From an uncultured Chlorobiota bacterium (GTDB lineage Bacteria; Bacteroidota; Bacteroidia; Bacteroidales; JAADGE01): a stretch of 64,000 nt of DNA. Positions 1,404 through 22,485 of the stretch are shown here, one piece after another. Position 1 is the first letter of the stretch. Each line of letters opens with the position of its first letter. The translations under genes and the position numbers were made by a program. The stretch spans positions 5,145-69,144 of the forward strand of contig CAMZKV010000008.1 of NCBI GenBank assembly GCA_947311445.1. The letters run 5' to 3'. The notes beneath the pieces were generated by a model. That model had not been told where the DNA came from. It searched no databases and saw nothing but the letters and a program-made list of their open reading frames with translations.

Positions 1404-1518
1404 TTATTTGCAAAAATAAGTTTATTCAGAAATAAAAAAAGATTTTTGTAAATAAAACAAAATTACATTTTATTTGTAAAATCTTTCATTCATTCTTTTT
1501 CGTGTCCGGAAAGTTTGA

Positions 1519-1618
1519 TTTATTAAGAGGAGTGAAGAGAACAGGCTCTGAGAAACTCCGGCAACCCCTTTTCTAAAGAGGAAGGTGCCAATACCTGCCC
1601 GATTTTGGGAATAATAAT
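1519..1618 (+). promoter_or_regulatory. SAM-I (S-box) riboswitch upstream of metH
   Basis: P1 is ttatta (1520-1525) / taataa (1612-1617). P2 is ggagt/actcc with GA-rich K-turn-like internal loop. Conserved ccggcaacc junction, P3 ccuuuu/gaggaagg, conserved ggtgccaatacctgc, and P4 ccc-gatttt-ggg. It sits 16 nt upstream of the metH ATG. Confidence 0.78.
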
Positions 1619-1633
1619 TTAACTTAAAAAATT

Positions 1634-4600
1634 ATGAAAAATTCAAACAAACTATATACAGCCCTAAAAAATAGAGTACTCGTTCTTGATGGTGCAATGG
1701 GAAGCCTTATTCAAACACACAAATTAGATGAAGCAGGTTTTCGTGGAGAAAGATTTAAAAATTGGCAGCTTGATTTAAAAGGCAACAATGACCTTCTTTC
1801 GTTAACTCAGCCACAAATTATAAAATCAATTCACACACAATATCTTGAAGCTGGTGCAGATATTATTGAAACTAACACCTTCAATGCAAACTTAATCTCA
1901 ATGGAAGATTATGATATGCACCAATACAAGCTGGTTTATGAAATGAACCTAAAATCTGCACAAATTGCCCGGGCTGTCTGTGATAAATTTTATGAAAAAA
2001 ATAAAAACAAATTTCGCTTTGTTGCAGGCTCAATTGGCCCAACAAATAAAACAGCATCAATGTCGCCAGATGTTGAAGACCCAGGCAAACGTGCAGTAAC
2101 TTTCGATGATGTTGTTGCAAGTTACACTCCACAAATAAAAGGTTTGCTCGATGGCGGTGCAGATATAATTCTTATTGAAACAGTTTTTGACACACTAATT
2201 GCAAAAGCTGCACTTTTTACAGTGCAAAAAGAAGCAAAAGAACGAAATATAACTATTCCAATTATGGTTTCAGGAACTGTTACCGACAAAAGCGGAAGAA
2301 CACTTTCCGGACAAACCGTAGGAGCATTTATAAGTTCTCTTTCGCATGTAGATTTGCTAACAATTGGGCTAAATTGCTCAACAGGAGCATCGGATATGCT
2401 ACCTCATATTGCCGAAATGTCAGAAAAATCTAACTTTAAAATTTCAGCACACCCAAATGCAGGAATGCCAAACCAGTTTGGAGAATATGATGAAACACCC
2501 AAAAAAATGGCTGTGGAAGTTAAGCAGTTTTTAGATAATTCTTATGTTAATATTATTGGAGGTTGTTGCGGAACCACACCGGAACATATTCACGAAATTG
2601 CAAAAATTGCCGAGAAATCTCATATTCATAAAGTTTCAGAAAAAGAAATAAAAAGTAAACTTAGCGGTTTAGAACTTTTAGAAATTAGTAAAGAAAATAA
2701 TTTTATAAATATTGGTGAACGCACAAATGTTGCAGGCTCATTAAAATTTGCAAGATTAATAAGAGAAAAAAAGTATGAAGAAGCACTAACTATTGCTAGG
2801 CAACAAGTTGAAAATGGTGCTCAAATTATTGATGTTTGCATGGACGATGCAATGCTTGACGCAGAAACTGAAATGATAACATTTCTTAACCTTTTAGTTT
2901 CAGAACCGGATATAGCAAAAGTGCCTATTATGATTGATAGTTCGAAGCATAATGTAATTATTGCAGGACTAAAATGTTTGCAAGGCAAAGCAATTGTAAA
3001 TTCCATAAGTTTAAAAGAAGGTGAAGAAACTTTTATTCAACACGCAAAAGAAATTCGCCAATATGGTGCAGCTGCCGTAGTTATGGCTTTTGACGAAAAT
3101 GGACAAGCAGCAACATATCAAGAAAAAATAGACATCTGTAAACGGGCTTATGACATTCTCACACAGAAAGTTAACTACCCACCACAAGATATTATTTTTG
3201 ACCCGAATATACTTACAATTGCAACAGGAATTGAGGAGCATAATAATTATGCTATTGATTTTATTGAAACAGTAAAATGGATTAAAAAACACTTGCCTTA
3301 TGCAAAAGTAAGTGGAGGAATTAGCAATCTATCTTTCTCATTTAGAGGCAATAATATAATTCGAGAAGCAATGCACTCTGTGTTTTTATATCATGCTGTA
3401 AAAGCAGGTTTAGATATGGGAATTGTAAATGCAGGAATGTTACAAATTTATGATGAAATACCGAAAGATTTATTGCAACTTACAGAGGATGTTATTTTTA
3501 ACAAAAGTAAAGATGCCACAGAAAAATTAATTGAATATGCTGAAACAGTAAAAAGTTCAGGAAAAAAAGAAAAAAAAATTGAAGATTGGCGGAAAAACCC
3601 TGTTGATGAGCGATTAAGCTATGCTTTGGTAAAAGGCATTACAGAATTTATTGATGAAGATGTAGAAGAAGCAAGGAAAAATTACAAACAAGCAATTAAT
3701 GTAATTGAGCAACCTTTAATGGCTGGAATGAATAAAGTAGGAAAACTTTTTGGAGATGGAAAAATGTTTCTTCCGCAAGTTGTAAAAAGCGCAAGAGTTA
3801 TGAAAAAAGCTGTTGCAATTCTTTTGCCATATATTGAAGCCGAAAAAGTTGAGGGAGAAAATAGTTCTGCCGGAAAAATTCTTTTGGCAACCGTTAAAGG
3901 CGATGTTCATGATATTGGGAAAAACATTACAGCTGTAATTTTAGCATGCAACAATTTTGAAATTATTGATTTGGGTGTTATGGTACATACCGAAAAAATA
4001 CTGGAAGAGGCTGAAAAACAAGATGTTGACATAATCGGTTTAAGCGGACTTATTACACCATCTTTGGAAGAAATGGTAAATGTTGCCAAAGAAATGCAAA
4101 AGCGAAAAATGAAAATGCCTCTGCTAATTGGAGGGGCAACAACTTCAAAAATTCACACTGCCGTGAAAATTGCACCGGAATATGATGGTGCTTCGATTTA
4201 TGTTGTAGATGCATCACAATCTGTGGGAATTACACAAAAACTAATTCAAAATAAAGATAATTTTATTGAAAATTTGAATGCAGAATATGAAAAAGTAAGA
4301 GAAAAACACGCTAACAAAAAAACAAAAAAATTAATTTCCTTGTCGGAAGCAAGAGAAAATAAATTTGTTACAAATTATAAAATTTCAAAACCTAACTTTA
4401 TAGGAATAAAAACTTTAAAAAATTTTCCTCTTGAAGAAATTTTACCATATTTCGATTGGACATTCTTTTTTCATGCTTGGGAAATAAAAGGAAGATTTCC
4501 TGAGATAACAGACCCTGCGGGTTTCCAAAACCCGCAGGGTCTGTCAGATGAAGACAGTCAAAACCCGCAGGGTCTTTCCCAAAAAGCAAAAGAAGCAAAA

Positions 4601-5368
4601 AAACTCTACGATGATGCACAAGAGATGCTAAAAAAAATAATTTCTAAAAAATGGCTTCAAGCAAATGCCGTAATAGGATTGTTTCCTGCAAACTCTGTTG
4701 GTGATGATATTGAAGTTTTTAATGAAGAAGGAAAAAAACTTACAACTTTTAGATTTTTAAGACAACAAAACAAAAAACAAAATAATAAACCCAACTTATG
4801 TCTTGCAGATTATATTGCTCCCAAAACAAGCAAAAAGCAAGATTACATAGGCACATTTGCCTTAACAACAGGACTTGGAATTGAGAAAAAGGTAAAAGAA
4901 TTTGAAGATGCAAATGATGATTATTCTGCAATAATGCTAAAAACTTTGGCAGATAGATTTGCAGAGGCTTTTGCCGAATTATTGCATAAAAAAGTTAGGA
5001 ATGAGTTTTGGGCTTATGCAGAAGAAGACCCTGCGGGTTTTAAAAACCCGCAGGGTCTGGCAGACTTATTTAAAGGAAAATATCAAGGAATACGCCCAGC
5101 AATTGGCTATCCTGCTTGTCCGGAGCATTCTGAAAAACGAGTTTTATTTGATTTATTAAATGCCGAAAAAAACACAGGAATGAGCCTAACAGAAAATTTT
5201 TCAATGTATCCGGGAGCATCAGTAAGTGGACTTTATTTAGCAAATTCTGAAGCAAAATATTTTAACTTAGGAAAAATTACAGAAGAACAAATTGAGGATT
5301 ATGCTGAAAGAAAAAAAATTAGCTTTGAACTTGCAGAAAAGTATTTGAGGAGCAATTTAGGATATTAA
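1634..5368 (+). CDS. metH: cobalamin-dependent methionine synthase
   Basis: 1244 aa with full MetH architecture: Hcy-binding (GGCCGTTP), pterin-binding, B12-binding (GDVHDIGKN), and activation domain ([14 protein letters not shown]). Confidence 0.95.
4509..4575. repeat. GC-rich palindromic element inside metH CDS (two arms plus an extra third arm)
   Basis: cagaccctgcgggttt (4509-4524), loop cca, aaacccgcagggtctg (4528-4543). Then a small hairpin ctgtc-agatgaa-gacag (4541-4557), then a repeated arm aaacccgcagggtct (4561-4575). Confidence 0.9.
5026..5058. repeat. second copy of the same palindrome inside metH CDS
   Basis: agaccctgcgggtttt (5026-5041), a, aaaacccgcagggtct (5043-5058). This is a 33-nt near-perfect palindrome in the same codon phase as the first copy. 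Confidence 0.9.
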
Positions 5369-5436
5369 AATTTGAACAGTCATTATTTTTCCAATATAAT
5401 TTACATTTTTGGTTTCGTGATAAAAAAAACAAAAAT

Positions 5437-6393
5437 ATGAAACTAGTTGACAAACTAAAAGATACAAAAAAAACATACTTTTCTTTTGAAATTTTACCGC
5501 CAATGAAGGGCGGAAGTATGGAGGATATATATAGTGTTATTGATCCATTAATGGACTTTGACCCAATGAATATTAATGTAACATATCATCAGCAAGAAGT
5601 TGTTTATAAAAAAAATAAACATGGTGTTATAGAAAGAAAAACAATAAGAAAACGCCCGGGAACAGTTGCTATTTCTGCGGCAATAAAATATCGTTACCAA
5701 AAGCCAATTGTTGTTCCGCATTTAATTTGTGGAGGATTTACAAAAGATGAAACAGAAGATGCATTAATAGATTTAAATTTTCTTGGAATGACAAATATTC
5801 TTGTTTTACGAGGCGACCCTCCGGCAAATCATAAATATTTTAGGGCAGAAACAGACGGGCATGTTCATACAAGTGGACTTATAAAACAAATTATGCACAT
5901 GAACCAAGGGCGTTATTGTGATGAAAGTTTGCACAATATTAGAAAAACAAATTTTTCCGTAGGAGTTGCCGGTTACCCCGAAAAACATAACGAAGCACCA
6001 AATATTAAGTCGGACATAAAATATTTAAAACAAAAAATAGATGCAGGAGCAGAATATATAGTTACGCAAATGTTTTTTGATAATCAAAAATATTATGATT
6101 TTGTAAAACTATGTAGAAACGAGGGAATAGAAGTTCCAGTTATACCGGGAATAAAACCAGTAAGAACAAAAAGAGATTTAGAACTTCTTCCTCAAGTTTT
6201 TAATATTGATTTACCGGAAGAACTCGCTTCTGAAGTAGTAAAAGCAAAAAATAATAAAGAGGTAAATGAAATAGGAATTGAATGGACAATAAAACAGTCT
6301 AAAGAATTAATAAAATTTGGAGTACCAGCAGTTCATTATTATACAATAGGAAAATCCGATAATATAAAAAATATTGCGAAATCAGTTTTTTAG
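5437..6393 (+). CDS. metF: 5,10-methylenetetrahydrofolate reductase
   Basis: 318 aa; FSFEILPP N-terminus and YIVTQMFFD motif typical of MetF. Lies immediately downstream of metH. Confidence 0.88.
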   Translation: MKLVDKLKDTKKTYFSFEILPPMKGGSMEDIYSVIDPLMDFDPMNINVTYHQQEVVYKKNKHGVIERKTIRKRPGTVAISAAIKYRYQKPIVVPHLICGGFTKDETEDALIDLNFLGMTNILVLRGDPPANHKYFRAETDGHVHTSGLIKQIMHMNQGRYCDESLHNIRKTNFSVGVAGYPEKHNEAPNIKSDIKYLKQKIDAGAEYIVTQMFFDNQKYYDFVKLCRNEGIEVPVIPGIKPVRTKRDLELLPQVFNIDLPEELASEVVKAKNNKEVNEIGIEWTIKQSKELIKFGVPAVHYYTIGKSDNIKNIAKSVF

Positions 6394-21342: not shown

Positions 21343-22254
21343 TTATTTTGTTAGTTCTCTAAAAACATCCTCCATACTTTTTTCTTTTTTGTATAAAGAA
21401 AGCAGAGTTAAATTATTTTTAACAGAAAAGCTAAATATTTGTGCCCTAATATCATCATTTTTTGATGTTTCCAATATAAAATTTCTTTTATCAATTTCAA
21501 CAATATTTTCTATTTTGCTTATTGTTTTTAATAGATTAACATCTATACTATTTGCAAACTCAACAACTATTGCATTTTTTGTTTGCAATGATAGCTCATG
21601 AATTTTTGACACAGAATTATTTGCAATTATTTTTCCCTTATCAATTATTATAACACGATTACATATTGCTTCAACCTCTTGCATTATATGAGTTGAAAGC
21701 ATAACAGTTTTTTCTTTGCCTATTGTAGAAATTAAATCTCTTATTTCAACAATTTGATTTGGGTCAAGTCCTGTTGTAGGCTCATCAAGAATTAAAACAT
21801 CCGGGTCATGAATTAAAGCTGCAGCAAGACCTGTTCTTTGTCTATATCCTTTTGAGAGAGCTCCAATTTTTTTATGTTTTTCACGTGAAAGACCAGTTAA
21901 ATTTAAAATATCATTAAGGTTTTCATTTATATTTCCTTTTATTTGGTACGTTTTAGAAACAAAATTTAAATATTCTTTAACGTACATATCAAGATAAAGA
22001 GGATTGTGTTCCGGAAGATAACCAATTTGGTTTTTAATACTTTTTATATCTTTTTTTGTATTAATTCCATTAACAACCACATCTCCCGAATTTTGAGAAA
22101 TATATCCGGTTATAATTTTCATCATTGTAGATTTTCCCGCACCGTTTGGACCTAAAAACCCAACAATATCACCTGTTTTTATTTCAAAACTAACAGAATC
22201 TAATGCTTTCTGATTTCCGTATATTTTTGTAATATTTTTTGCAGATAAAGACAT
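21343..22254 (-). CDS. gldA: ABC transporter ATP-binding protein, gliding-motility GldA-like
   Basis: Walker A GPNGAGKST and signature LSKGYRQR. Strong resemblance to GldA blocks (IGYLPEHNPLYLDMYV, LDEPTTGLDPNQ, GKEKTV.LSTHIMQEVEA.C.RVIII). Confidence 0.72.
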   Translation of the reverse strand: MSLSAKNITKIYGNQKALDSVSFEIKTGDIVGFLGPNGAGKSTMMKIITGYISQNSGDVVVNGINTKKDIKSIKNQIGYLPEHNPLYLDMYVKEYLNFVSKTYQIKGNINENLNDILNLTGLSREKHKKIGALSKGYRQRTGLAAALIHDPDVLILDEPTTGLDPNQIVEIRDLISTIGKEKTVMLSTHIMQEVEAICNRVIIIDKGKIIANNSVSKIHELSLQTKNAIVVEFANSIDVNLLKTISKIENIVEIDKRNFILETSKNDDIRAQIFSFSVKNNLTLLSLYKKEKSMEDVFRELTK

Positions 22255-22485
22255 TGTAAAATAATTCTATATATTAAAAACATTCAAAACTAATATAAAA
22301 CTACAAGTTTTACAAAACTTCATGCTTTTATCAAATTTAAATATACAAAAAGCATTGGAATTCTAATATACTGTGCTGATAAACAGGAAAATAAAAAAAA
22401 CATTGTCGCATATATTGTTTTGTAACATAAATTTTTCTATTTTAGCAAATTATTCAAAACTTATAAAAAATAAACATATAAAAAG

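Follow-up and report, generated by a model that had tools for sequence, protein, structure and literature searches.

Repetitive extragenic palindromic (REP) sequences can also reside within coding regions. In the parts of the survey by Di Nocera et al. that bear on the present case (2013, BMC Genomics 14:522, PMC3733652), REPs are reported inside genes of several species, sometimes twice per gene, these intragenic REPs are linked to the Rickettsia palindromic elements (RPEs), and REPs of the CGTC type are described as not linked to transposase genes; the RPEs are mentioned there as lying in-frame in protein-coding genes (Ogata et al. 2000, as cited in PMC3733652). REPs are likewise held by the tnpA_REP genes of subclass 2.4, which occur in Cyanobacteria, Bacteroidetes and scattered phyla and whose products carry the HuH signature NH[IFV]H; here a REP is inserted in-frame into the transposase gene itself, in the part that separates the HuH motif from the Tyr motif, and a location in peripheral loops is considered probable for insertions of this kind (Quentin et al. 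2018, PMC6006769). The present analysis concerns two copies of a 33-nucleotide (nt) palindrome within metH, the gene for cobalamin-dependent methionine synthase, on a 64-kb stretch of DNA from an uncultured Chlorobiota bacterium (assembly GCA_947311445.1, contig CAMZKV010000008.1, positions 5,145 to 69,144; hereafter the window). Very probably, this palindrome belongs to a family of 33-nt REP-type hairpins which act as cargo and recognition element of a REP-associated tyrosine transposase (RAYT, or TnpA_REP, a HUH/Y1 transposase of single-stranded DNA), and was inserted in-frame. The features concerned are as follows.

REP copy 2: positions 5026-5058, no strand assigned; perfect 16+1+16 palindrome of 33 nt, or 11 codons, in-frame in metH.
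REP copy 1: positions 4508-4544, no strand assigned; 17+3+17 palindrome with a 33-nt core at 4510-4542, in-frame in metH.
Spacer and orphan right arm: positions 4545-4574, no strand assigned; the arm AAAACCCGCAGGGTCT is at 4559-4574 and its half-site core at 4561-4574 on the minus strand.
metH: positions 1634-5368, forward strand; intact gene for cobalamin-dependent methionine synthase (1244 amino acids), host of the REP inserts.

Copy 2, which the preliminary description had presented as a near-perfect palindrome of 33 nt, is in fact a perfect one, AGACCCTGCGGGTTTT-A-AAAACCCGCAGGGTCT, whose two arms of 16 nt show 100% complementarity and enclose a single nt. The claim that a second, essentially identical hairpin stands in the same codon phase also holds: copy 1 has the same arms, and both copies read GAC CCT GCG GGT TTx xAA AAC CCG CAG GGT CTG, which translates as DPAGF-x-NPQGL. 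Their GAC codons (4511 and 5027) belong to the metH frame, as 3 divides the distance of each from 1634 without remainder. The spacing of 450 nt originally given for the pair was approximate, the actual distance being 516 nt from start to start. A 14-nt half-site, GACCCTGCGGGTTT, has five matches in the window, all five inside metH, against a chance expectation of 0.06 matches per window, and at least five matches were reached in 0 of 100 dinucleotide-preserving shuffles. As the window has a guanine plus cytosine (GC) content of about 29%, the palindrome forms a GC-rich island. The open reading frame (ORF) on the antisense strand at 4398-4619 was correctly said to carry the palindrome peptide, a trivial point in that it follows automatically from the palindrome.

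To judge from aligned sequences, both palindromes in metH are probably insertions. The two DPAGF..NPQGL segments are absent from all 30 MetH orthologues compared, at about 55-61% identity, as well as from E. coli MetH, so that the 11 residues are not a conserved trait of distant MetH proteins. They are carried only by the window, by uncultured Chlorobi RB_MAG_00012 (locus L005), by Chlorobiota L_MetaBat.177 of assembly JAADEE (locus L020) and by the metagenome fragment P0001 (locus L088). At site 1, which holds copy 1, about 20 residues are extra with respect to the E. coli MetH structures. At site 2, which holds copy 2, the loop is longer than in E. coli, as was noticed at the outset, with 21 residues between WAY and YQGIRPA versus 15 in E. 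coli MetH. Deleting the 11 codons from L020 gives back a normal loop length; 4 codons upstream were later lost in the window and L005, and codons were gained downstream in L088. Both insertions appear to have occurred before at least three lineages diverged, and the one at site 2 is common to four.

The orphan arm next to copy 1 belongs to a 33-nt in-frame addition (11 codons) that is present in the window and L005 only and corresponds to an 11-codon gap in L020. This addition, at 4545-4574, may have arisen by partial duplication or as a second insertion that has since decayed. The arm was also tested as part of a degenerate second REP, but the stretch to its left cannot be recognised as a REP arm, agreeing with one, by eye, at 5 of 17 positions only.

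The host protein retains the features of a complete MetH. A Pfam search found all five domains, and for the activation domain there is a match to E. coli MetH structures at E = 1e-82. An AlphaFold2 model of this domain has a mean predicted local distance difference test score (pLDDT) of 90.5 and a predicted template modelling score (pTM) of 0.89, and confidence dips only at the two inserts, to a pLDDT of 57-75 over residues 51-80 and of 55 over residues 231-240. The predicted structure is pure coil at site 2 and mostly coil at site 1. The model is consistent with inserts that occupy exposed surface loops of the activation domain, and the low-confidence coil at both sites agrees with the early proposal that they sit in loops.

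The candidate partner of the hairpin comes from related genomes. ORFs of 226 amino acids with the HUH motif PNHFHFL and the Tyr motif YIHYNP are found at L011 (5829-6509) and L006 (1008-1688); the same palindrome stands on both sides of this ORF, and a third copy lies in-frame inside it, where it is read as DPAGF-x-NPQGL. Two flanking copies and one internal copy are seen at L006, L011, L029, L086 and L087. The NCBIfam profile REP_Tyr_transpos matches the ORF (E = 1.9e-15), the sole match of the family profile in the PDB is E. coli TnpA_REP (4ER8, E = 1.8e-6), and several homologues are labelled 'REP element-mobilizing transposase RayT' by the Joint Genome Institute. The product of the 226-amino-acid ORF is thereby identified as a probable RAYT, TnpA_REP-like rather than of the IS200 TnpA type. 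Going by motifs, its Y motif (YIHYNP or YIHNNP) fits subclass 2.4 and is also close to 2.6. Subclass 2.4 of TnpA_REP corresponds to group 4 of the RAYTs of Bertels et al.

The association between hairpin and transposase extends beyond a single sequence. L006, which has the RAYT gene, and L020, which has the metH inserts, share the assembly JAADEE; a relative with the metH inserts thus has both the element and the transposase. Divergent RAYTs come with different hairpins, namely CCTGCAAGGTTTT at L083, AGACCAGACAGGTTTT at L085 (Psychroflexus torquis) and AGACCCTAAGGGTTT at L089 (a contig of 63% GC), and in each of the three the hairpin upstream of the RAYT gene matches the hairpin inside it, at L089 also the one downstream. 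The hairpin thus changes along with the RAYT sequence, and co-variation of this kind is what a cognate pair of REP and transposase should show. A G[FL]xN peptide is found at the position of the internal REP in 63 of 120 RAYT homologues.

The surroundings of the RAYT genes show several further arrangements. At L046 (1080-1890), a RAYT gene starting at 1922 is immediately preceded by at least six tandem non-coding units of 131 nt, each with one 33-nt hairpin. In Psychroflexus torquis ATCC 700755 (CP003879; L085, 9672-10639), the gene for the RAYT homologue P0170 sits in a type II CRISPR-Cas locus, with cas9 on one side and cas1/cas2 on the other, and a cognate hairpin of its own (AGACCAGACAGGTTTT...) precedes the gene and recurs in-frame within it. 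At L089 (700-1515), the metagenome contig of 63% GC encodes a RAYT that belongs to the same clade; copies of a sister REP, AGACCCT[AT]AGGGTTT..., stand on either side of this gene and within it, and the one within is read in a phase other than that of the low-GC RAYTs. The RAYT gene stands between urocanase and amidohydrolase genes at L086 (389-4464), and a urocanase gene is also found upstream at L006 (25-1688); at L011 (5093-6509) and L087 (2283-3663) it follows a beta-carbonic anhydrase gene. With its conserved neighbourhoods, the RAYT gene has the look of a resident that is inherited vertically in single copy, rather than of an insertion sequence that hops. In the window, a weak tblastn match to RAYT at 22141-22314 was dismissed, as it lies partly inside the ORF of an ABC-transporter ATPase.

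The search for copies elsewhere that the preliminary description had suggested was productive. An exact scan with one genome per species located the palindrome at 21 loci with GC contents from 27% to 66%, and a scan of metagenomes with a relaxed core added 61 further loci. The source genomes of the 21 loci are low-GC Chlorobi/Chlorobiota, one Bacteroidales assembly and, unexpectedly, Chloroflexi/Anaerolineae of 60-66% GC. RB_MAG_00012 has 7 perfect copies on 6 contigs and JAADEE has 4. In the low-GC genomes, intergenic copies lie 10-140 nt past the 3' ends of genes, or between genes. Measured against what is expected of a REP, copy 2 in metH is a short (20-40 nt) and stable palindrome; multiple dispersed and mostly intergenic copies exist in the relatives, while within the 64-kb window all copies are in metH; and the metH copy, being intragenic, departs from an extragenic location.

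Identical 15-nt arms are shared by Chlorobi/Bacteroidales genomes of 27-33% GC and by genomes of 57-66% GC, several of them labelled Chloroflexi/Anaerolineae. The loci of 57-66% GC are L001, L007, L008, L012, L013, L016, L017 and L018, together with high-GC metagenome loci. There, the copies are intergenic, for example just upstream of the ribosome-binding site of a yedK-like SRAP gene and of ackA, or are read in-frame as part of FtsK and of a DNA-methylase protein.

The low-GC copies are of uniform size, with 33 nt in all 43, and high-GC copies measure either 34 nt (n=17) or 33 nt (n=10). Target-site duplications of any significance are missing from all copies; none of the 43 low-GC copies is flanked by direct repeats of more than 3 nt, and most are without any. 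The flanks of the 43 low-GC and 27 high-GC copies hold no conserved target motif, apart from a slight bias towards C at position -1, and no terminal inverted repeats were seen beyond the hairpin itself. The lack of both a target-site duplication and a target motif fits the 'peel-and-paste' mode of HUH/Y1 enzymes and not that of miniature elements of the DDE type, and a miniature inverted-repeat transposable element of that type was ruled out for want of a target-site duplication.

The reading phase is equally uniform in low-GC hosts. Six independent mid-gene insertions were collected from these genomes, in the following places.

metH, site 1: REP copy 1 of the window.
metH, site 2: REP copy 2 of the window.
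RAYT gene: the internal copy described above.
PrmC/HemK: L078, 1307-2260; copy in the linker between the PrmC_N and methyltransferase domains.
SprB/PKD/Ig adhesin of 4006 amino acids: L072, 1-12018.
RHS-like protein: L063, 903-1553.

The PAGF/NPQG phase is used in six of these six insertions, an outcome with a probability of about 0.004 under equal phase use, in a small sample (n=6) taken from the DNA loci collected and with stop codons in the loop that partly restrict one of the other phases. The DPAGF/NPQGL phase had been proposed as something to look for in other genes, and it indeed recurs in the low-GC RAYT, PrmC/HemK, SprB/PKD adhesin and RHS-like genes. The high-GC form of 34 nt switches phase between its arms, giving for instance TLRV..NPQGL in the DNA-methylase protein and DPAGFRKPAGS in FtsK; since these copies and that of L089 are read otherwise, the preferred phase depends on the host. 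The length of 33 nt belongs to the element itself and needs no renewed selection each time a copy inserts, and as it is constant in low-GC hosts, preservation of the frame is built into the element.

Taken together, these data suggest the following course of events. By analogy with IS200/IS605 and E. coli TnpA_REP, the RAYT would bind the hairpin on single-stranded DNA and would have pasted copies into metH on two occasions. In the DPAGF-x-NPQGL phase, the unit of 11 codons would be free of stops and yield a turn-forming peptide in which Pro, Gly and Asn are abundant. Because such a unit landed in exposed loops, the enzyme would have remained functional and the insertions would have been retained, and those that fell elsewhere or in less benign phases would have been purged. 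The preliminary description had already argued for repeated insertion filtered for read-through, a view that is now supported by the other copies, by the absence of the segments from orthologues, by the shared phase and by the length polymorphism.

Searches for other known elements at this position gave little. At the gathering threshold, Rfam has nothing at the element in the window or at 11 loci, the only matches being the SAM riboswitch and one tRNA; a permissive Rfam scan of 4300-5300 returned sub-threshold matches to eukaryotic microRNA-like hairpins only. In the papers searched, the arm sequence was met only as an unrelated cloning primer, and it is absent from Rfam. Viral contigs contain zero exact matches to the palindrome, hence there is no sign of phage origin. 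A reading as terminator or promoter is not supported, as no terminator-like site was found in 4300-5500 and the hairpin is followed by GGCAGACUUAUUU, without a U tract. The riboswitch is the following feature.

SAM riboswitch leader of metH: positions 1517-1620, forward strand; RF00162, 84.5 bits versus a gathering score of 44.4.

This S-adenosylmethionine (SAM) riboswitch, or S-box, lies directly 5' of the metH start at 1634, which places metH under S-box control. It is context only and lies outside the palindromic element.

Several observations weigh against insertion of the metH palindromes by a RAYT. A length polymorphism is seen in the 33-nt addition at site 1, but the close relatives available include no metH allele with an empty site, so that insertion is deduced from orthologues at 61% identity or less. 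The flanks of the 43 low-GC and 27 high-GC copies have no GTAG or CGTC foot, the tetranucleotide by which the classical REP super-families are defined. The RAYT scores fall under the curated cut-offs, with 57 versus 80 bits for NCBIfam and 17.4 versus 23 bits for Pfam Y1_Tnp. There is no RAYT gene in the 64-kb window, co-residence being seen in a relative only. To our knowledge, what has been shown of REP transposition by a RAYT is limited, for E. coli TnpA_REP, to cleavage and rejoining in vitro. Lastly, a neutral passenger sits badly with the finding that 10 of the 11 codons of site 2 are identical in all four lineages, versus 35% of the other codons of the domain (binomial P ~2e-4).

This last point leads to the question of whether the metH hairpins, once arrived as REPs, have been kept because they serve a function as DNA or RNA, as binding sites for RAYT or gyrase or as mRNA structures that pause ribosomes or set mRNA processing where loops begin or end. 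MetH of the window is 94% identical in amino acids to that of L005, 86% to that of L020 and 81% to that of L088, and third codon positions are 62-80% identical in pairwise comparisons of the four lineages. The palindrome of site 2 differs among them at the loop base only, and inspection of the alignments shows its last codon to be CTG in all four. At site 1, L020 has AAACCC...GGGTTT, a paired G>A / C>T change by which complementarity is kept, and the unpaired orphan arm has drifted by two substitutions between the window and L005, with none in the paired arms. Folded as RNA, the hairpin is very stable (-28.6 kcal/mol, z = -6.2 versus shuffles). The palindrome is therefore kept up as a nucleotide sequence, possibly by selection, by gene conversion with other copies as donors or by correction on the hairpin as template. 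The same pattern would, however, be expected without any function in metH if mismatches were corrected on the template of an intrastrand hairpin, if other REP copies converted the gene, or through activity of the RAYT; the sample amounts to four lineages and a single compensatory event, and hosts as unrelated as MetH, PrmC, an adhesin, an RHS-like protein, FtsK and a DNA methylase speak against a gene-specific role. The hairpin also lacks a terminator-like tail. A retained function, which would add to a REP origin rather than replace it, is accordingly regarded as rather unlikely.

Other explanations concern the origin itself. Spread of the hairpin could be unrelated to the RAYT, by means of another miniature transposon or of recombination, its proximity to RAYT genes being secondary. 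The missing GTAG or CGTC foot would agree with this, as would the failure of hidden Markov model and motif regular-expression searches to find a RAYT in the fetched flanks of any high-GC copy and the statement, in the parts of PMC3733652 compared, that CGTC-type REPs are unlinked to transposase genes. Set against it are the five independent RAYT loci with the same hairpin on both sides and inside, the co-variation of hairpin and RAYT at L083, L085 and L089, upstream and inside alike, and the absence of inverted repeats beyond the hairpin and of target-site duplications, unlike what DDE-type miniature transposons leave; such spread is therefore considered highly improbable. That the palindrome is native MetH coding sequence which happens to be self-complementary, or that DPAGFxNPQGL is a selected protein motif, could be argued from its in-frame position adjoining a conserved MetH block. 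This idea is effectively refuted by its absence from the 30 orthologues and E. coli MetH, by the occurrence of the same 33 nt in intergenic DNA and unrelated genes and by the 0.06 half-sites expected by chance in the window, and the conservation of all synonymous positions points to the nucleotide and not to the peptide level. An artefact of assembly or library preparation comes to mind since hairpin adapters or foldback chimeras can make perfect palindromes, yet the same metH codon is affected in four independent assemblies from different projects (the window, CAMZKL, JAADEE and Ga0438694), the loop bases vary while the reading frame is kept, and more than 80 other loci stem from many studies, which leaves an artefact with next to no credibility. 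Insertion in-frame of a REP served by a RAYT is retained as the most probable account of the metH palindromes.

A bolder proposal, which we put forward as speculative and ourselves think doubtful, is that the REP family, with its constant 33 nt in low-GC hosts and its freedom from stops and tendency to form turns in the phase found within low-GC RAYT genes, is 'coding-competent' by design and that its intragenic copies, far from being just tolerated, are actively kept as perfect hairpins, either by selection or by a hairpin-dependent correction linked to the RAYT. If this were true, the arms shared by low-GC and high-GC genomes would reflect a strong sequence constraint imposed by the transposase or a recent transfer of REP and RAYT between phyla. 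Maintenance of the palindrome in a coding region, the uniform phase in low-GC hosts and the identical arms in low- and high-GC genomes are mildly surprising.

The locus shows neatly how, in nature, a mobile hairpin can reshape a highly conserved enzyme of an essential type and leave it unbroken, and for this hairpin a probable transposase partner has been identified, unlike for the classic Rickettsia elements. For annotation, the element matters in that it yields spurious antisense ORFs and inflates loop lengths in alignments; in addition, DPAGFxNPQGL is bound to turn up in proteins that share no ancestry, where it can give rise to spurious homology. Its strict conservation across lineages and its presence in genomes of very low and very high GC make it a tractable system for studying whether REPs are kept up by selection or by self-correction, and how REP and RAYT move between phyla.

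How the metH hairpins relate to described systems can now be stated. RPE-1 is roughly 100-150 nt long, encodes about 30-50 amino acids and is not known outside Rickettsia, and we know of no cognate transposase for the RPEs. The metH element resembles an RPE as a palindromic repeat found in-frame in conserved genes, at tolerant regions of the protein; it differs by its 33 nt, by an identifiable RAYT partner and by its occurrence in genomes labelled Chlorobi, Bacteroidales, Chloroflexi and Anaerolineae. Membership in the RPEs was rejected, as size and host range do not fit and in-frame behaviour alone is in common. With the IS200/IS605 elements it shares a HUH/Y1 transposase that recognises DNA hairpins and the absence of a target-site duplication. 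In IS200/IS605, however, the hairpins are the ends of an element that carries its transposase, whereas here the hairpin alone is dispersed and the RAYT gene recurs in the conserved neighbourhoods described above in different assemblies.

The intragenic REPs in the parts of PMC3733652 compared are similar to the metH copies in that they add short peptide segments and leave the ORF intact. Those REPs are tagged by GTAG or CGTC, come from Opitutus, Thauera, Rickettsia and others and are often dimers that encode 20-30 amino acids, whereas the metH family is untagged, consists of single units of 11 codons and resides in a low-GC genome of the Chlorobi type; MetH is not among the hosts named in those parts. 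The likeness is closest to the 'REPtrons' formed by REPs and RAYTs, with a short palindrome that is dispersed mostly 3' of genes and a HUH/Y1 transposase gene flanked by the same hairpins, although copies seem to be few, about 7 perfect ones being present in the species-representative assembly that is closest. As in subclass 2.4, an in-frame REP is internal to the RAYT gene, and the motif NHFH fits NH[IFV]H. Unlike in subclass 2.4, the metH-type REP is without a 5' GT[AG]G foot, and unlike imperfect, bulged REPs its hairpin is a perfect palindrome of 33 nt. REPs lying in-frame in genes and REPs inside tnpA_REP genes of subclass 2.4 have already been published (Di Nocera et al. 2013; Quentin et al. 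2018), and the metH case is a new example of this described phenomenon rather than a new kind.

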